In this document: in pieces, positions 14,640-64,000 of the stretch | How the letters are laid out: every line of letters begins with the position of its first letter | Numbering within the stretch: position 1 is the first letter of the stretch | Assembly: GCA_024679065.1 (NCBI GenBank) | Contig: JAGIQG010000029.1 | Span: 12,710,001 to 12,774,000 of the forward strand | Length of the DNA stretch: 64,000 nucleotides | Source: Sphyrna mokarran | Lineage: Eukaryota | Reading direction: 5' to 3' | Notes under the pieces: model-generated | Told to the model about the DNA's origin: nothing | Databases searched by the model: none | Seen by the model: the letters and a program-made list of their open reading frames with translations, nothing else | Program-made: the position numbers and the translations under genes

Positions 14640-16028
14640 GGGTAAGGCAGTTGATGTGGTAAATATGGACTTTAGTAAGGCGTTCGATAAGGTGGCCCAT
14701 GGAAGGCTTCTGCAGAAAATGCAGATGTATGGGATAGAGGGTGATTTAGCTAATTGGATTAGGAATTAGCTAGCAGATAGAAGACAGAGGGTGGTGGTTG
14801 ATGGGAGATATTCATCGTGGAGTTCGGTTACAAGTGGTGTACCTCAGGGGTCTGTTTTGGGGCCCCTGCTGTTTGTAATTTTTATAAATGATCTGGATGA
14901 GGGTATTGAAGGATGGATTAGTAAATTTGCGGATGACACCAAAGTCGGTGGAGTGGTAGATAGTGAAGAGGGGTGTTATAGTTTGCAGAGAGACTTGGAC
15001 AAGTTGCAGAGCTGGGCCGAGAGGTGGCAAATGGAGTTTAATGTGGAAAAGTGTGAGGTAATGCACTTTGGCAGGAATAATAAATGTGTAGAGTATACGG
15101 CTAATAGAACATAGAACATTACAGCACAGAACAGGCCCTTTGGCCTTCGATGTTGCGCCGACGAATATAAAAAGCAATGCCCCTCCAAACTAAACCATTC
15201 CCTTCTCTTCCATATACTTATCAACTAACCTCTTAAACGCCACCAAACTTGGCGCATCTACAACTGCTGCAGGCAGGGCATTCCACTCACGAACCACCCT
15301 TTGGGTAAAGAATGGTAGGATTCTTAATAGTGTTGATGAACAGAGGGATCTTGGTGTATATGTGCATAGATCCCTGAAAGTAGGCAGTCAAGTCGATAAG
15401 GTTGTCAAGAAGGCATGCGGAGTCTTAGCTTTTATTGGTAGGGGGATTGAATTTCGGAGCCGCAACGTCATGTTGCAACTGTACAAAACTCTAGTGCGGC
15501 CGCACTTGGAGTATTGTGTGCAGTTCTGGTCCCCACATTATAAGAAAGATGTGGAGGCATTGGAGAGGGTACAGAGGAGGTTTACCAGGATGTTGCCTGG
15601 TATGGAGGCAGGTCTTATGAAGAGAGGCTGAGGGATTAGGTTGTTTTCGTTAGAAAGGAGGCGGCTAAGAGGGGACCTTATTGAAACATATAAGATGATT
15701 AGAGGTTTAGATAGGGTGGACAGTGATAGCCTTTTTCCTAGGATGGAGAAAGCTAGCACGAGGGGACACAGCTTTAAATTAAGGGGTGATAGTTATAGGA
15801 CAGATATCAGAGGTAGGTTCTTTACCCAAAGGGTGGTTAGGGAGTGGAATGCCCTGCCTGCGGCAGTTGTAATCGCCAAGTTTGGTGGCGTTTAAGAGGT
15901 TAGTTGATAAGTTTATGGAAGAGAAGGGAATGGTTTAGTTTGGAGGGTCATTGCTTTTTTTTTTCATAATTGGTCGGCGCAACATCGAAGGCCGAAGGGC
16001 CTGTTCTGCGCTGTAATGTTCTATGTTC
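14640..16028 (+). mobile_element. Young CR1 LINE (family A), 5'-truncated RT plus 3' UTR
   Basis: ORFs [61 protein letters not shown] and LERRRLRGDLIETYK; terminus GGCCGAAGGGCCTGTTCTGCGCTGTAATGTTCTATGTTCTA. Confidence 0.95.
15106..15312 (-). mobile_element. CR1 family A 3' end nested in inverse orientation inside the family A copy
   Basis: Near-exact reverse complement of ~15816-16028; the host frame EYTAN|GRILNS is restored when it is removed; AAT at both junctions (15103-15105, 15311-15313). Confidence 0.95.
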
Positions 16029-19554: not shown

Positions 19555-20150
19555 TGGGGTTAGGCGACCATTGACCAAAAGCTGAACTGGGCTAATGTAT
19601 AAATACTGAGGCTACAAGAGCAGGTCAAAGGTTAGGAATCTTGCAGACAGTAACCCATCTCCTGGTCTCAGAAATGTGATTGAGTATTCTCTACTTGTCT
19701 GGATGAGTGCACTCCAACAACACACAAGGAACTCAACACCATATAAGATGAAGCAGCCCACTTGATTGGCATCACCTTACATTTTGACACCACTGACACA
19801 GCATGTGTATCATCTACGTGATGCAGCAATTCACCTATCAAACCCATGACCAATTCAATCTAGAAGGACAATAGCAACAGATACATGGGAACGCACCACC
19901 TACAAGTTCCCCTCCAAGCCATTCACCATCCTGACGTGGAAATATATCACTGTTCCTTGCGGAATCAAAATTCTGGAATTCCCTCCTTAACCATATGGTG
20001 GGTCAACCCACAGCATGTGAACTGCAGTGATTCAACAAAGCAGCTCACCACCACCTTCTCAAGGGCAATTAGGGATGAGCAATAAATGCTGACCAGCCAG
20101 CGATGCCCATGTCCCACGAATGAATAAAAAAAAATGCACTGCAGCAACAC
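19555..20150 (+). mobile_element. CR1/L2-group LINE 3' fragment (second degenerate tail copy ~20150-20430)
   Basis: ACCATTGACCAAAAGCTGAACTGG...GGCTACAAGAGCAGGTCAAAGGTTAGGAATCTTG (TIDQKLNW...ATRAGQRLGIL); tail CAGCTCACCACCACCTTCTCAAGGGCAATTAGGGATGAGCAATAAATGCT...GAATGAATAAAAAAAA. Confidence 0.8.
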
Positions 20151-28795: not shown

Positions 28796-30248
28796 GGTGT
28801 GCACCTCAGTTTGAATACAAGTGCGCCTACATTTTTTTTCATTTATCTTATTGTGCAGACAGTACCAAATTTAGAAAACTGGGCTGAAACTTTTTTCTCA
28901 TTTAGCCTCTTGCCCGATCTTCTCTGTTGAAGTTTCTAAGAGAATTAATTTTGAAAATCCCATTTCAAGTTATGGTCATCCTGCAGCCTGACTGAGACTG
29001 AAAGTGAGACAAGAGCAATAGGTGAACCCTAAAGAGGCTACACAAATTAAAATCACATTAAAACTTGAAATATGTGATCCTTACACTATTTAACCTTGTG
29101 TTTGTTGATATGAGTACAATACCCTTGATGTCCTTAGCAATACAATTTTTCTAATGCAATAAAACCAGACTTGGTACTTAATTAGCAAAGCACAATGTTA
29201 GTGAATGGTCAAGGTAGATAAATCACCAAAATTACTAGAGAAAGGCTGTTGAGGTTATGGAGGGAATTAATCTCCGAGTTAGCTTACCTACATACTGTAG
29301 ACCAAACTCCTACGCTGAATAGCCTCTGAACAGTTTTAATGAACATTTTAATAAACTATTTCATTCGACATTCTTGTGGGATCACCACTCCACAATGGCT
29401 TCTTTTTTCATTTAATTTTCCTTTTTGAATCAACCTTGGTTTGAAACTGTATTGAGAAGATAAGGAGGAATTCCCAGCATGTGAGCTGCAGTTCTGCAAT
29501 TGGCGTATATCAAGTCCAGCGGGAGTGAATGCAGACATACATCTGGATTCTGTAGGTTGTAAGATGCCTAGAGATGTTAACGAAAATAATGTATTTTGTG
29601 CCATTGGAATTCCATTAGCTTTGATTCTGGGTTGACTGAAATAACTTGAAGTCTGAAGGCTAGCACTCTCATTTACTGTGGGGTAATAGCACATGGAATG
29701 TTTAAAATGCTTTTGTATTATTAGCCTGTGCAATATTGGGAATAGTGATTCACTGATGCCTGATGATGTAGATTCAGATATATTGCATCAGTAGATGTCA
29801 TTGCTGTGAGTAATATTTAATATTAATGTTAACCATCTAGGAAACCTCCCAGCTTAACTTGCTTGCATCAGGAGGGAATGCCTGCAGAGCTGGGATTTCC
29901 TGTGTGGAGGTGTAGGGGTGGGCTGTAGTTGAGCCAGCAGGTCTACGAAACAGTTTGGAGACAGCAGTCAGGACTGTGGAGGTGTTGAGGTGAGATGTTT
30001 GAAAGAATCACATCAGCGCTCTGGGTCTTTGCTAGACTCGTACTTAAAGAATAAGATGCTATAGCTGCCACGCCCCTAATACTGTATGTTTTTCCTGACC
30101 CTATCCATGGCATCTCATGTCACACTATGACTGCTCATTCCCCCATGCCAAGGTATGCACCCCATCCTCCCCTTAAGGTCCCTCATGCCATGCTTTGGCA
30201 CTTTGGCCCATTTACTATTAGGCACAGTATAGAATCAATGAATGATGC

Positions 30249-30479
30249 TGTAGTGACATCAACGAGGCCCATGACAATAGTCTCTTGGAGTATGAGCTCC
30301 CTGTTGAGCTTATGATTGCCTGCCCAATCAAGGACTCTCACCTGTATATATTGACGAGTGTCAAAGCTACTGCCACTCTGGATTCTGACTTTGTACCAGA
30401 CACATTCTCAGGAATGGAATTGAGTTTGTAAGTAAAGGGAATCTGATGTAGGGACACCGGCCTCTGAGGAATTATTTCA
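30249..30479 (+). mobile_element. Solo LTR, ~230 bp, uninterrupted (LTR-3)
   Basis: TGTAGTGACATC...GAGGAATTATTTCA termini, CCAAT (30324), TATATA (30345), AGTAAA (30431); colinear with the reverse complements of 42066-43245 and 61729-62471 once their inserts are removed. No clear TSD. Confidence 0.7.
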
Positions 30480-31029
30480 CTTACAGTGACAGTAGAAACT
30501 CCATATCGATCAATGAATGACTTGTTTTAAAAATGACTTTACATGTCCTTTGTCACTATCTGATTTGTTGTTTCTATCCAGGGTCTATTGGGTGAATGGA
30601 CATGTAAGTGCCATGGTTTTGTATGAGGGGCCAAACAGAGTGGATGGGAGGGCCTTTCGTAGCATCTGGGGCATGAGGAGAAACTTTTGAACTTACCTTT
30701 CAAAATATTCCCTCAGTCTGAGTCTAGTTAACCCCTGAGGTTCAGTGAAATGTGTCTCTTCGAAAAACTGGCCCAACTCCATGAAAAGTGTAGGGGACGA
30801 GGGCACGCTTGTCCCCAAAATGGAGCTGGAAAAGTTGGCAGGATGCCGGCTCATGACCTAAACCAACTCGCAGCTGAAAGGACTCTGCTGAAAATCAAAA
30901 ACCCCAAGAATGGGGCCAGGAATCTAATCTCGGGTGCTAGTTCTTATTCTTCCAAGGAATCTCCCTGGCTACATGAAACTCCATGGTGTCAGCTGCAGCT
31001 CACTTGGCAACCATCATGCTTCTTGGGTG

Positions 31030-31669: not shown

Positions 31670-32594
31670 TGTTTTAACCCTTGTACAGTCGACAAAGAAT
31701 TGCGAGTAGACTTCTCATTAGTACAGTGGTACTCATTCACACACAATTATTAAGCACCCACTCAATCAATACTAAGCTATCTTACAGAATACCAAAATTC
31801 AAGTCCAATATAGACCTTAACTTTTGCGTGACTGGCAAGTATCCAGACAGATATTGGCCTTTATCCGCATGTTGATCTCAGTAGTGCTCAGCATAGTCTA
31901 ATCCTTTGGCCTACTCTGATACCCTGGCTGTGGTCTTCCTTCCCTCCTTGTGCTGATCGTTACTGGCAATGGCCACCATTGTTGTTGTTTTTTCATTGAG
32001 AAGAGAGACATACTTCTGTTGTGCAGCAGATTTTATATTGCATTGGTTTTGTGCCCTTTTGGTGGTCTCTTGATTATTGCCAATCAGTCAATCAGGGATT
32101 GATCACCCTGATCAATAGAGTCAATCAGGTGCTGCCGCACCGATCTCTGGGTGTATACCCAACGGCCATGTCAATAGGTGCTGGAGGCACGTGGGTGATA
32201 TACCTCCCTCCCAAGTAAGGGGTTAAGGTGCCCCTGTGTCTGGTAAACAAACTAGTTTGACCAGAAAATGTCCTTTATCCTCGAGATGGCCAGTATGCTG
32301 TGTATTCCAGCTCCTGATGTGGAGATGCTGGCATTGGACTGGGATAAACACAATAAGAAGTCTCACAACACCAGGTTAAAGTCCAACAAGTTTATTTGCT
32401 AGTGGCATTTGCTACCAAATAAACCTGTTGGACTTTAACCTGGTATTGTGAGACGTCTTACTGTATTCCAGCTCCTGCAGCTGCAACCTGTTTATCTCTG
32501 TTCAATTTCTTTTGACGTTGTAGCCTGTCTGTTTCTGTACTTGTCCAATTATCCCAGTGTGCTCTTGTAAACTTAGGTGGCCTGTTTGTCCACA
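31670..32594. mobile_element. Possible longer solo LTR hosting the Penelope insert
   Basis: TG...CA-bounded, CpG-retaining segment with CCAAT/TATA-like motifs; possible GAGTC/CAGTC flanks. Family not recognised. Confidence 0.35.
32315..32463. mobile_element. Penelope-like element, inverted-repeat remnant with a 16-bp direct duplication
   Basis: Arms ~32351-32403 and 32411-32463 are inverted copies; TGTATTCCAGCTCCTG at 32301-32316 and 32462-32477. Confidence 0.8.
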
Positions 32595-32809: not shown

Positions 32810-34015
32810 AAATTTTGACAGTGAACCATAGAAAGCAATATTAAGTCACATGCCAAATGTTTCAAAGAGCATCCTCAGGCAGAATAAACGTGGAGAGGTT
32901 TTGGGAGGAAATTTACAGAGATGGACAGCACAGCTGTCAGTAAAGTCATGGAGACTTTTAAAAACGTTTTAGAATGAGAATTCTCATTTTGATTAAACAG
33001 GTGTTACTGTAGGTCAAACACAGGGAGAGGGTGAATTGGACTTAGTGTGAGCATATATGGTCAGTGGAGTTTTAATTGACGTCAAGTTAATGGAGGGTGA
33101 TGTAGTGGTTTGTTAATGGACTATGAACCCAGAAGGCTAGGCGGGGTGCAGGAACAAGGGTTCAGATCCCACCATGGCAACTAGTGGAATTTGAATCCAA
33201 ATAATTGTTGGGAATTGAAAAGCTGGCCTCTATGATGATGACCATAAAAGCATTTCCAATTGATATATAAAAAAACAATTCCCGGTAGGAAAGGAAACCT
33301 GCCATCCTTGCTCTGTTCTGGGCAACATGATTCAAGGCATGTGGCAATGTGGTTGAATCTTGACCTTCCCTCTGAAATGACACTGCAAGCCATTCAGTTC
33401 AAGGACAGTTAGGGATGGACAACAATTGCTGGCCTTGTCAGCGATGCCCACATTCCCATAAAAGAGTGAAAAAAAAGCTTGACCATCGAGGAATCTGTTA
33501 GGATAGTCAAGTCCGTAAACTGAAATGATTTCAGTAGCAGATGAGCCAATGGGATTGCAGATGGCCATTGTTGTGAAAGTAGAAATTAACCAGTTGATGC
33601 AAATGCATGGTTAGGAGCTGGTTTTTGAGTCAATTATGACACTAAGGTTGTGAACAGTCTGGTTTGCCTCAGTTTCCAGAGGTGGATGTTAGAGATGGTG
33701 GCTGGTGAACAGAGTTTGTGGCAAGAGCCAATGTCAATGGCAGCAGTTAAAAGTAAAGACAACTTGAATTTTAACCGAAATACATCAAGGTCAGGCAGCT
33801 CAGCCCCATTCTTCCCCATTTTTAAATGACTATGATTGAGGCTCTGACAAACGGCAGGCAAGGGTCTGATTAACATTCTAAAATCACAGCCTGATGACTG
33901 AATTGATCCAGAGATTGAAATGGCATGGTAGGAGGAGAATGTTCCAAGTATGGCATTCCCAGCAGCTGATCCGAGGCAGGTGCTGCTGAATCTCCAAGAG
34001 CAGTAACTATTTTAG
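32810..34015 (-). mobile_element. Old L2-like LINE fragment, interrupted by a SINE
   Basis: GTGGAGAGGTTTTGGGAGGAAATTTACAGAG and GAGTCAATTATGACACTAAGGTTGTGAACAGTCTGG resemble reversed L2 3' sequence; degenerate. Confidence 0.5.
33095..33475 (+). mobile_element. tRNA-derived SINE sharing its 3' tail with the LINE at 19555-20150
   Basis: GTGATGTAGTGG...GGGTTCAGATCCCACCATGGCA head; tail AAGGACAGTTAGGGATGGACAACAATTGCTGGCCTTGTCAGCGATGCCCACATTCC. Confidence 0.75.
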
Positions 34016-41925: not shown

Positions 41926-42198
41926 AGAATGAGAGTGAGGAGTTTTCTTGTTCATCTTCTTTCAATCCCTCAGTAAATACCATCAAACATAAATGAGATT
42001 AGCTGACAGCTAGCTCATGCTTTATGGAGCAATATGTGTAAAATGGACTAGGTTTGACTCTCGTGTGTAATAAATCCATGGGGATGAAATTCCCATCACC
42101 AGAGTTCCTTTATTTACAAGATCCCACCGTAACATAGAGTTTAACAGTGTACATCAGGAGCCCAGAGGGACTGATACTCCTGTTTAAATACAATACAT

Positions 42199-42807
42199 AG
42201 AACATAACATCACAGAACAGGCCCTTCGGCCTTCGATGTTGCGCCGACCAATATAAAAAGCAATGACCCTCCAAACTAAACCATTCCCTTCTCTTCCATA
42301 TACTTATCAACTAACCTCTTAAACGCCACCAAACTTGGCGCATCTACAACTGCTGCAGGCAGGGCATTCCACTCCCGAACCACCCTTTGGGTAAAGAACC
42401 TACCTCTGATATCCGTCCTATAACTATCACCCCTTAATTTAAAGCTGTGTCCCCTCGTGCTAGCTTTCTCCATCCTAGGAAAAAGGCTATCACTGTCCAC
42501 CCTATCTAAACCTCTAATCATCTTATATGTTTCGATAAGGTCCCCTCTTAGCCGCCTCCTTTCTAACGAAAACAACCTCAAATCCCTCAGCCTCTCTTCA
42601 TAAGACCTGCCCTCCACACCAGGCAACATCCTGGTAAACCTCCTCTGTACCCTCTCCAATGCCTCCACATCTTTCTTATAATGCGGGGACCAGAACTGCA
42701 CACAATACTCCAAGTGCGGCCGCACTAGAGTTTTGTACAGTTGCAACATGACGTTGCGGCTCCGAAATTCAATCCCCCTACCAATAAAAGCTAAGACTCC
42801 ATATGCC
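42199..42807 (-). mobile_element. Young CR1 family A, 5'-truncated
   Basis: Open 177-aa ORF 42276-42809(-) nearly identical to 15400-15900; CAT at both junctions. Confidence 0.95.
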
Positions 42808-42853
42808 ATGGAGCTCCTTGATTGACCATGAATTAGAGCTCTCAGTCAGGAGC

Positions 42854-43050
42854 ATCTTTTAGTGTCCAACCAAATAAACAGACTCAAATTCACTTTGGGA
42901 CAATTCAAAAGGGACAGCTGCCGAAAGGAGAGGAACCGCCTTAAACAAAAAACAAAGTGGAAAGGAAACTTAAAAAAAATGCTTAATGGGGTCAATGATA
43001 TACCCCAGTCCCTGCGGTACCCAAAAGACATGGAAGGCATTGACAGTGCC
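42854..43050 (-). mobile_element. Tx1-clade LINE 3' end, copy 2
   Basis: Minus strand reads GTVNAFHVFWVPQGLGYIIDPIKHFF* (compare GAVHAFCIHWAPQGLEYIINPDNHLLA*); 3' UTR CAAATAAACAGACTCAAATTCACT matches 61929-61952. Confidence 0.8.
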
Positions 43051-43126
43051 TCGAGCAGAGTTTTCTTTTGTTTATTGAACACACCATAAACAACAAGAAT
43101 ACTCCACAGATCCAGATGAACACAGC

Positions 43127-43200
43127 GGGCCAGTAAGGGGATGGAGCTCACAGCTTTGGCATTATTAGCACCACACTCTGGCTATCTGAGCTAAATTTCC
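43127..43200 (-). pseudogene. tRNA-Ile(AAT) pseudogene or tRNA-derived SINE head
   Basis: Minus strand GGAAATTTAGCTCAGATAGCCAGAGTGTGGTGCTAATAATGCCAAAGCTGTGAGCTCCATCCCCTTACTGGCCC aligns without gaps to the recalled vertebrate tRNA-Ile(AAT), about 55/74 by eye; acceptor stem and T-loop are damaged. Confidence 0.75.
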
Positions 43201-43356
43201 ATTCATACTCAAGCCGATCTCAATAGCCTGATAAAAGCCACCACAAGTGTCACAGCTGCACTTCGATAGTTCATGTGAAATTCTTTGAGGTATTTCTTTG
43301 AGACAGGTTTAAATCTTTTGCAAGTGCTTTACCTGACGTGGCAATAATACTTTGTG

Positions 43357-60495: not shown

Positions 60496-60741
60496 TAGAA
60501 CATAGAACATTACAGCACAGAACAGGCCCTTCGGCCTTCGATGTTGCGCCGACCAATCTAAAAAGCAATGACCCTCCAAACTAAACCATTCCCTTCTCTT
60601 CCATATACTTATCAACTACCTCTTAAACGCCACCAAACTTGGCGCATCTACAACTGCTGCAGGCAGGGCATTCCACTCCCGAACCACCCTTTGGGTAAAG
60701 AACCTGCCTCTGATATCCGTCCTATAACTATCACCCCTTAA
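60496..60741 (-). mobile_element. Young CR1 family A 3' end
   Basis: Near-identical to 42199-42437 and 15106-15312. Confidence 0.95.
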
Positions 60742-61150: not shown

Positions 61151-61728
61151 TATCGAGGATAGAGCACCTGATCTTGCGAAGCATCAAAGTACAGCTTATA
61201 AAATAAAATGTTTTTGAATATCTTGTACCATTTAAACAGAATGAAATCTTAATTAAAAATACTTTGCCAGGCACTGCATCTTCAAATATCTCATTTCATG
61301 GCAATCGTTTTGTTGCTTTGTAACAAAATGCCAAGTAATTGGCCTTTGACTGAGTTGTGACTGAAGCGTTTGCCTCAATCAGGTGAAACATGCGGGAAAT
61401 AACAAACCATTAAACACTGATGCACCATGAAATGTGAAGTTTTAGTGCCTATCCTATATAGAACTGTGTTTGGTCTGGGTGGTTTTGCGTAACATATTTG
61501 AGAAACTGAGAATGCACAAACACTTGAATCATCAATGTAATGCTGACATAATAAAACAATGTGTTAAACATTGTTCTTTAACATTAGGTTTTGATTCTGA
61601 AAGCTTGTATCCCCAATATACACTTCATTCTATCTTGGTTGTATACTTATATTAATTCGTGGGACATGTGTTGCTAGCCGACCAGCAACTATTGTCATTG
61701 TTAGTTGTCCTTGGAGCACAGTTGAGAG

Positions 61729-62471
61729 TATAATAACTCCCCAGAGGCGAAAAGTCCTCTCACCAAGTTACTTTATTTACACCATACATCTGAACACAAC
61801 CAACTCTCCAGTTGCTCTTTGCTGAATGCAGGCTGGGAGTCTGACACACCTGCTTTAAATAGGGAGCATGAGGCTCCCTGATTTCACCATTAATTAGGAC
61901 TCATCAGGTATCCCTTTTCAATACCAATCAAATAAACAAACTCAAATTCACTAAGGGGCAAATTAAAAAGGGCAGCCATCCCCCGTGCAAAAAAAGGAGG
62001 GGGGACAACCTGAACCAAAAATCAAATCACAAAGGAAACTTAAAATATCAAGCCAAAAGATGATTGTCGGGATTGATAATATACTCCAGCCCCTGTGGTG
62101 CCCAGTGGATGCAGAAAGCGTGAACTGCGCCTGTTGACACTGCGTGCTCCCTTTCCGGGGATACCCGGCTATGAATATAGCCGCAGTAGAAAGGCAGACA
62201 GTCAGGATGGGTGATCCCATCGATTGCCTGCTTTCTGGACTTGTTGATGACACGCCTCGCCAGTCCCAGGAGCAGGTTCCTGAAAAGATCATCCTCCCGA
62301 TCCACACCCTTCCGCACCAGGTGCCCGTAAATCAGGAGCCTGGGACTGAAGTACAAACAAAACACCAGTAAAAGGTTTTTGAGAAAACTGAAAAGTATGT
62401 GCCAGCTAAGGACTCATCAGGTAGTTTAAACTCTAGCAAGCCAACCTATTGGCCTGGCTGAAGTCATCACA
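61729..62471 (-). mobile_element. Solo LTR (LTR-2, 230 bp without insert) with a 5-bp TSD GAGAG
   Basis: GAGAG at 61724-61728 and 62472-62476; minus strand begins TGTGATGAC, has TATTTAAA and AATAAA, and ends GGGGAGTTATTATA. Confidence 0.8.
61911..62408 (-). mobile_element. Tx1-clade LINE 3' fragment, copy 3, with a 15-bp TSD
   Basis: ORF 62048-62365(-) FSPRLLIYGHLVRKG...LLLGLARRVINKSR...DCLPFYCGYIHSRVSPEREHAVSTG...WAPQGLE resembles a Tx1 ORF2 C-terminus; AGGACTCATCAGGTA at 61896-61910 and 62409-62423. Confidence 0.85.
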
Positions 62472-64000
62472 GAGAGTTAACCACATTGCAGTGGCTCTGA
62501 ATTTACGTGTAAGCCAGACCAGGCAAAGATGCTGATTTCCTTCCCTAAAGGACATTCATGAACCAGATGGATTTTTCCAACAATAGACAATGGTTTCAAA
62601 GTCATCAGTGGATTCTTAAATCGAGCTATTTTTTTTCCTTGAAATCAATTTCCACCATCTGCTGCAGCGTGATTCGAACCTGAGTCATCGGAACATTAGC
62701 TGAGTTTTTGGATTAATAGTCTAGTGATATTACTATTAGCTCGTTGCCTCTCTGCCAACACAATCAATTTACTTCAAAGTAAAAATAATATTTATGTGTA
62801 TAAATGTATGTGTGCGTATAATCTTCATATTTCTAAGCTTTTCTCTTGGGGGGGTGAGAGATTGCATGGGCTTGAGACCAGATAATTTTGGTGGAATGTG
62901 TTTTGTTTTAGCCACAATAGCTGGTTTAATTTCTTCATTCTTTGATATTTATCTCATAAAGGTGATTAGTTGCAGTGTTTCTCCAAAAAAAGGCCGTACA
63001 TTAACATAGTCACAAAGCAATTAAGCGTCTTTGGTCTTTTCAGTTGACTTCAGCTGAGGCTCTGCAAGAGTCTGCAGCCAGAGGGCTTTGCATTCAAGCA
63101 GAAGCCAAAGTACATAAGAAAAGCGGACTTCCCAACACTGGAGGTTGGAATCTTATCACCTTTCGCGTCAATGGGGGCAATGGAGCAGAAGTAGGAAATA
63201 ATAGTAGGAGTATAAAGAGACAAATCAACTTCAGAGTTACACTGCTATTGGTGAATAGAAGCCTATTCATAATGTTCATTCCTTTGACATCCTCTTAGTT
63301 TGCCAATTTTGCCAATCTTCAGGTCATTCAAAACTGAGGAAAGGAAACTCACTATTAGTGTCCCATTGTTTCTGGCTGTTAAGGGATTAGTTTTCATTTT
63401 GTAGTGTGCACGTGAAAAAGGCCGAATTTGAAGGTGTCATTTTGAATGGTACCAGCAGAATGCAGCATTGCCAACCCAGCCAGCTGCATACTCAATAAGT
63501 TGTACTAAGATTGGAACAATAGGTGTGTGTGCTAAAATCTATTGTGTTTTTTGTGGTGTGTTTGATGTGCTCCAGCTGAGCAGTTCAAGCTGTGAACCTC
63601 ATCTTCAGCAGTCCAATAGTCCACTTTATCGTTGGCCTTGTTTGAGGAATGGATAGCATTGTCCCCCTCCTCTGTTGTAGTTTGTGGGTACCACTTTGGC
63701 ATCAGGTCCTCTATTATCATCTCTTGTCATCAGGGACTCAAACCTGCAGCAAATGAAGAGGAGCAAACACTTGTGGCACCTGAGGATGTACAAACTGTGG
63801 GAACTTCCTGGGTGGCTAGACACAACAAAAAGGTTTGCAAGGGCCAGCTGTACACAGAGTGAAAACTCTTAGTTTTTGGATGCTGCTCAATATGAGAGGG
63901 ATATCTGCCACATTTTAACTCCAATACTTTCTATCTCCCTTTCACTCATCAACCTCCCTATACCCTCCTTCCCCTCACCTTCCCTCGCTACTTTCCTCTG

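Follow-up and report, generated by a model that had tools for sequence, protein, structure and literature searches.

The window, a 64-kb stretch of DNA from Sphyrna mokarran, contains at 61650-62755 (locus A) a nest of three repeats on the minus strand, in which a SINE is interrupted by a 230-bp solo-LTR-like repeat and the latter is interrupted in its turn by a 498-bp 5′-truncated Tx1 fragment (Tx1 A). The nest is made up of the following features.

61650..61728, minus strand: tail part of the host SINE, with 61724-61728 as one copy of the LTR TSD; it aligns to 33080-33480 and has an nhmmer match to 20059-20128
61729..61910, minus strand: downstream part of LTR copy A, with TATA-like and AATAAA motifs and a TA end; 67% identical to LTR C, 0 of 300 shuffles
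61896..61910, minus strand: 3′ copy of the 15-bp TSD, inside the downstream part of LTR A
61911..62408, minus strand: Tx1 copy A, 5′-truncated, with the ORF2 C-terminus followed by the stop and a 3′ UTR of about 135 nt
62409..62471, minus strand: upstream part of LTR copy A, with a TG start; the 15-bp TSD has its 5′ copy here, at 62409-62423
62472..62755, minus strand: second copy of the LTR TSD (62472-62476), then SINE body and head; it aligns to 33112-33360, E 2.9e-9

LTR A is bracketed by a 5-bp TSD, GAGAG, at 61724-61728 and 62472-62476, and Tx1 A by an exact 15-mer at 61896-61910 and 62409-62423 that is present nowhere else in the 64-kb window. With one TSD copy counted, the LTR measures 182 + 48 = 230 nt, and Tx1 A was inserted after its nucleotide 48. 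The host SINE extends from a head near 62755 to a tail near 61650 and is split by LTR A at 61729-62471. Its two halves match the copy at 33080-33480 in order (0 of 1,000 shuffles for each half), and compared to that copy it is without about 25 nt directly beside the LTR; a B-box-like motif was read from the sequence near 62673-62682, in the part with SINE body and head. Coordinates and exact repeats agree with the nest described in the first-pass annotation of this DNA, namely a SINE that holds a solo LTR with a GAGAG TSD, which holds a Tx1 3′ fragment with a 15-bp TSD.

LTR A also carries a perfect 7-bp inverted repeat at 61861-61879, just upstream of the TATA-like box and beside a hammerhead-like string. 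An snRNA or hammerhead target was considered for the CTGATGAG...GAAA stretch of LTR A and rejected, as Rfam gave no such match and the stretch was read as a variant of the CAATC motif in LTRs B and C.

Tx1 A contains 119 open codons of an ORF2 C-terminus at 62407-62051. In a direct BLASTP comparison, this piece was 38% identical over 99 aa to residues 1195-1292 of the 1308-residue Xenopus Tx1 ORF2. A profile built from the fragment and 20 first-round matches retrieved YTX2_XENLA at E 3.9e-33, together with a turtle protein of 1306 aa that carries an endonuclease as well as an RT domain. The BLASTP alignment and the profile match bear out the earlier assignment of the insert to Tx1; on sequence grounds, the insert at locus A is a 5′-truncated Tx1-type LINE. 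Among the matches listed in two profile searches (23 and 118), none was named as L1 ORF2, and none was a named protein from a shark. A search of 1.84 billion representative proteins with the Tx1 A fragment gave 59 matches, none of them named. Domain scans of 18 of the 59 found one weak zf-RVT, one weak RVT_1 and one weak zf-CCHC match, host domains in three proteins, and no domain in the remaining 12. In the full-length relatives P0064 and P0072, both PF03372 and PF00078 are present. The fragment itself matched 0 Pfam families and gave one chance match (E 0.32) in the PDB, and a single-sequence homolog search in longer proteins returned 0 of 429 candidates. The three Tx1 fragments of the window are C-terminal/3′ pieces, without RT and without the endonuclease (EN) domain.

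Predicted host proteins, including dynein, kinesin, butyrophilin, SLC22A16 and BTB protein models (P0030, P0046, P0054, P0075, P0077 and P0045), were also seen to contain a Tx1 C-terminal piece. Here, Tx1 fragments from introns have probably been drawn into the gene models by error.

The second locus with a Tx1 piece inside an LTR, locus B, lies at 42066-43245 and is more complex.

42066..42194, minus strand: 3′ part of LTR copy B, with a CA end; 71% identical to LTR A and 68% to LTR C, with 0 of 300 shuffles in either comparison
42195..42807, minus strand: 3′ fragment of a young LINE, which interrupts LTR B some 45 nt downstream from the point of Tx1 entry; 96-98% identical to other copies in the window
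42808..42854, minus strand: LTR copy B where it resumes 3′ of the Tx1 junction; closest to the 3′ flank of Tx1 A among all non-self positions, 75% identical to A
42855..43053, minus strand: Tx1 copy B, the last 26 or so ORF2 codons and the 3′ UTR; 71-73% identical to Tx1 A, tblastn E 1.6e-5
~43058..43202, minus strand: extra insert of about 145 bp between the 5′ part of LTR B and Tx1 B; single copy in the window
43203..43245, minus strand: upstream part of LTR copy B, with a TG start, ending at the target site after nucleotide 43; 69% identical to the upstream part of A (0 of 300 shuffles); against C, 7 of 300

The young LINE, which we take to be of the CR1 type, has copies 96-98% identical to 42195-42807 at 15412-16026, 15109-15312 and 60500-60741. 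No trace of a 15-bp duplicate was found at Tx1 B. A 5-nt repeat at 43057-43053 and 42854-42850, at both ends of Tx1 B, may be a short TSD; the chance of such a 5-mer is about 3.6%. The insert of about 145 bp has an AATAAA and an A-rich end, and a possible tRNA-derived head lies at 43127-43191. The head of the insert at 43058-43202 presumably resembles tRNA-Ile(AAT). The ARAGORN call of tRNA-Ile(AAT) was made only at -ps80, a setting at which 32 of 300 shuffles also gave a call. A tRNA head was rejected as a candidate, since ARAGORN with default settings found 0 genes, Rfam found no tRNA, the -ps80 call was not above shuffles and a phage search gave two chance matches. Comparison of the insert tail with the three Tx1 tails was not significant (809, 292 and 861 of 1,000 shuffles reached the score). 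The insert may have arisen as a template-jump chimera, or it may be a SINE that used the same LTR target site.

The third copy of the LTR and the third copy of Tx1 are found apart from each other.

30249..30479, plus strand: LTR copy C, empty, TG...CA; the site homologous to the target is at about 30288-30310
7137..~7497, minus strand: Tx1 copy C, outside this LTR family, its 5′ side abutting another repeat; tblastn E 1e-10

Homology of the three LTR copies was established by leave-one-out profiles of their 3′ parts, with which the copy withheld was recovered each time (E 1.6e-4, 1.8e-6 and 1.5e-4); the control, a reversed window, gave a best E of 0.097. No fourth 3′ part was found by the profiles in the window. 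Identity between copies is 67-73% overall and 63-75% in piecewise alignments, of which six of eight were reached by 0 of 300 shuffles and the other two by 1 and 7. LTRs B and C have TG...CA termini and LTR A has TG...TA. An exact 5-bp TSD is present in one of the three copies (A); B has 3 of 4 matches at 4 bp, and C has none. No integrase or Gag family was found in 66 of 68 frames of at least 95 aa that were scanned, two of which had matches (RVT_1 and ALKBH8_N). The stretch that corresponds to the target differs considerably among the three LTRs, and the 21-nt U3 motif quoted by the first-pass annotation as the presumed recognition sequence matches none of the copies exactly; with up to four mismatches allowed, it was found only in A and C. 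LTR C lies between the two copies of an exact 12-nt direct repeat, at 30234-30245 (3 nt before its start) and 30509-30520 (29 nt after its end). Elsewhere in the window, 32360-32456 is a near-perfect inverted repeat with a spacer of about 47 nt and a weak match to mir-3015 (33.8 bits, gathering threshold 59); it looks like a miniature inverted-repeat element.

All three Tx1 copies in the window are on the minus strand and share the 3′ end (3 of 3), with pairwise identities of 73-76%. A clear TSD accompanies one of the three (A), the copy in which an intact 3′ end, 5′ truncation and a TSD occur together. For Tx1 C, the comparison covered 60 codons and showed one stop in frame. A tree of 26 C-terminal pieces, covering a region of about 110 aa and rooted at the midpoint, was built on this region as the window fragments carry no RT. 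In this C-terminal tree, Tx1 A and C lie on long branches (0.57 and 0.55) in a weakly supported group (86/90), which also holds proteins on short branches, such as P0084 (0.025). The Xenopus/turtle/sturgeon branch of the same tree (100/100) excludes Tx1 A and C. An early reading of the identities of about 70%, that they mark separate Tx1 families, was dropped, because A and C are long-branched members of one group with codon-neutral differences. Judged by these comparisons, Tx1 A and C are old, decayed copies of one group. A search for more Tx1 copies with flanks in prokaryotic genome contigs gave 102 pattern matches, 0 of them confirmed.

These data bear out much of what had been noted about the copies. 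Two of the three LTR copies are filled and two of the three Tx1 copies are in the LTR, as profiles and a flank scan of the 64-kb window agree, and LTR C is indeed empty, its homologous target site being without Tx1. At locus B, the same Tx1 group was found at nearly the same LTR position and in the same orientation, as claimed; the earlier description omits the absence of the 15-bp TSD, the insert of about 145 bp, the young LINE piece in LTR B and the age of the copies.

The 3′ junctions of Tx1 A and B lie about 2 nt apart in the LTR and in the same orientation, with that of B (42855|42854) upstream of that of A. In the flank scan, the 55-nt 3′ flank of A was scored against all of the approximately 128,000 oriented positions of the window, with A's own neighbourhood set aside. 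The best non-self match was the junction of B, with scores to 37; the next best was the empty site in LTR C (26.5, tied with an off-register position in B), and four unrelated positions scored 26. The A-B score of 31 was equalled or exceeded by 12 of 60,000 random position pairs, with any repeat family counted, which corresponds to about 6e-4 for three pairs; a separate estimate from self-BLAST was 0.8-1.4e-4 per pair. Both the rank of the B junction and the random pairs speak for the earlier claim that A and B are co-located by more than chance. The 3′ flank of Tx1 C scored like random sequence against the flanks of A and B and had no other match in the window.

Nearly the same spot in two related LTRs implies that the Tx1 family probably seeks that spot, and the Tx1 group of the window probably prefers a position about 45-50 nt into the LTR. 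Tx1 3′ flanks fall in the LTR in two of three cases, with an exact 95% interval of about 9-99% (hand calculation; one window, n = 3). The co-location is non-random. The term 'target-specific' in the first-pass annotation is too strong, since of the three copies in this Tx1 group one is located elsewhere than in the LTR; preference is the better word.

The explanation that we favour, with somewhat more confidence than doubt, is that a Tx1-type LINE lineage entered A and B in two separate events of target-primed reverse transcription, each at a favoured LTR site 43-49 nt from the start. This site would lie upstream of the TATA-like box, with Tx1 in the LTR's own orientation. The apurinic-like endonuclease of ORF2 would nick the bottom strand at a conserved LTR stretch, and reverse transcription would then be primed from the Tx1 3′ end, with 5′ truncation to follow. 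A top-strand nick 15 nt downstream would yield the 15-bp TSD of A. Locus B would represent a blunt or short-TSD event, with the extra 5′ piece acquired either by template jumping or through another insertion into that site. A multicopy repeat would serve as a low-cost landing site, and the preference would be partial. Recognition of an LTR motif by the endonuclease is inferred from the analogy to Tx1L (PMC1950540, available part) and to the crocodilian elements of Kojima 2015 (PMC4494074). All Tx1/LTR copies here are old and dead. Several facts weigh against this mechanism, including the small number of copies (n = 3), the location of Tx1 C outside the LTR, the lack of a 15-bp TSD at B and the entry of a non-Tx1 LINE into LTR B as well.

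The question of independence is closely tied to an alternative in which one ancient Tx1 piece in the 3′ LTR of a full-length element was copied to progeny, so that A and B would be solo LTRs and B would have been rearranged later. In LTR replication, a piece in the upstream region of the 3′ LTR is copied into progeny LTRs. A Tx1 piece at that position could hitch-hike in the same way. We consider this composite origin improbable. A single 2-nt indel would make the 3′ junctions of A and B identical, as a composite predicts, and their orientation is the same. Furthermore, A-B identity is alike for the LTR (73%) and for Tx1 (73%); the LTR has not diverged significantly more than Tx1 has between A and B (47-61 of 400 simulations), and A and B are slightly closer by alignment score per nucleotide (0.53) than A and C (0.40) or B and C (0.47). 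However, three-way LTR columns did not group A with B, the differences private to one copy numbering 23 in A, 11 in B and 20 in C. The 5′ ends of Tx1 A and B differ and the 5′ part of LTR B stops at the target site; the differing 5′ ends argue for independent insertions. A composite would require at B a deletion of about 315 nt starting no more than 2 nt from the target site and a foreign insert of about 145 nt, for which a hand estimate is 1-2%. Coding differences between A and B also fall in excess at third positions (14 of 27, P = 0.036, uncorrected and one of several tests run), as would be expected if two active masters had diverged before insertion; those between A and C are codon-neutral (22 of 59, P = 0.30). 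Segmental duplication of A and B was rejected because their outer flanks are dissimilar (184 of 300 and 125 of 300 shuffles reached the score). The perfect TSD of A was likewise discarded as proof of independence, as both TSD copies age along A's lineage in either model.

Two further accounts leave out a reading of the LTR itself. The preference of Tx1 may be real and directed at a degenerate short motif or at open promoter DNA, with the LTR upstream region as one of many such sites; variants of the latter include nucleosome-free DNA, a bound factor or short pairing of the purine-rich 3′ end of Tx1. Such an account would fit Tx1 C outside the LTR, the differences in target stretch and TSD length between A and B, the unrelated LINE in LTR B, and two crocodilian Tx1-Mar hot spots without recognisable similarity (PMC4494074). 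It is nonetheless unlikely in our judgement, as the 2-nt register and the common orientation appear tighter than chromatin access alone would give, and the flank of Tx1 C is unlike the LTR site. Least probable of all is coincidence, with a non-selective Tx1 family and a window singled out for two chance matches. The window was chosen post hoc, and at about 6e-4 per three-copy window a large genome would hold some such cases by chance; against this stands a likelihood ratio in the hundreds (hand estimate) when the prior is taken from crocodilians, where each of the three Tx1 groups favours a repeat of some kind (PMC4494074). Preferred insertion at the LTR site, independently in A and B, is the explanation that we retain.

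Dewa is a Tx1-clade element with a multicopy target. Keno, Kibi, Koshi and Tx1-9_AMi are Tx1-clade elements with multicopy targets as well (PMC4494074), and in this they are like the window element. They insert into U2 snRNA genes, microsatellites or Harbinger transposons, whereas the target in the window is an LTR. The clade is often target-selective, the choice being set mainly by the endonuclease, and TSDs, truncation and blunt junctions all occur (PMC4494074). In crocodilians, all three Tx1 groups prefer some repeat; Tx1-Mar families are found in Mariner-N4 and Tx1-9_AMi in Harbinger elements (PMC4494074). The same study counts a family as target-specific when over 20% of its flanks lie within a single type of repeat. 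Tx1-8_Crp and Tx1-4_AMi of the crocodilian Tx1-Mar group prefer LTR retrotransposons (Kojima 2015, PMC4494074). They are like the window element in this preference, and likened at that level only; the host differs. Tx1L of Xenopus laevis (YTX2_XENLA) is, as here, an endonuclease-targeted LINE nested in another transposon, and its endonuclease in vitro nicks almost only its own target, according to the available part of PMC1950540. Its target Tx1D is a piggyBac-type DNA transposon and the choice is stringent, whereas the window element has an LTR as target and a partial preference. Some Tx1 families have snRNA-derived heads, and SINEU insertions occur in tandem (PMC4494074); Rfam found no snRNA at the Tx1/LTR loci of the window. 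Transposons are among the known targets listed in the available part of PMC4640811, and that of PMC5381603 mentions Tx1 once, for crocodilians. The literature covered gave no account for sharks or for the LTR; Repbase, Dfam, subscription papers and the supplements of Kojima 2015 were outside its scope and may contain one. The novelty implied earlier for the pairing of Tx1 with an LTR was overstated in view of the crocodilian families reported to prefer LTR retrotransposons (PMC4494074), and it is possibly limited to the host.

A more far-reaching reading, which is tentative and on balance doubtful, would see here a Tx1 lineage of its own, probably from cartilaginous fishes, with an endonuclease that recognises a motif close to the promoter and kept across diverged LTR variants. 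Such a lineage would follow a group of LTRs and not a single family, would disrupt the upstream promoters of the LTRs and would bring a tRNA-derived SINE to that site as well. If true, this delivery would parallel crocodilian Tx1-Mar and SINEU, with an LTR as host.

LTR-preferring Tx1 elements have been reported in crocodilians, and the preference described here opens no new category. If true genome-wide, it would add one more defined target to those of the few APE retrotransposons that are sequence-selective. It would also provide a natural endonuclease-target pair for studying specificity change in such enzymes, and it would mean that one class of retroelement lands in the promoter region of another.
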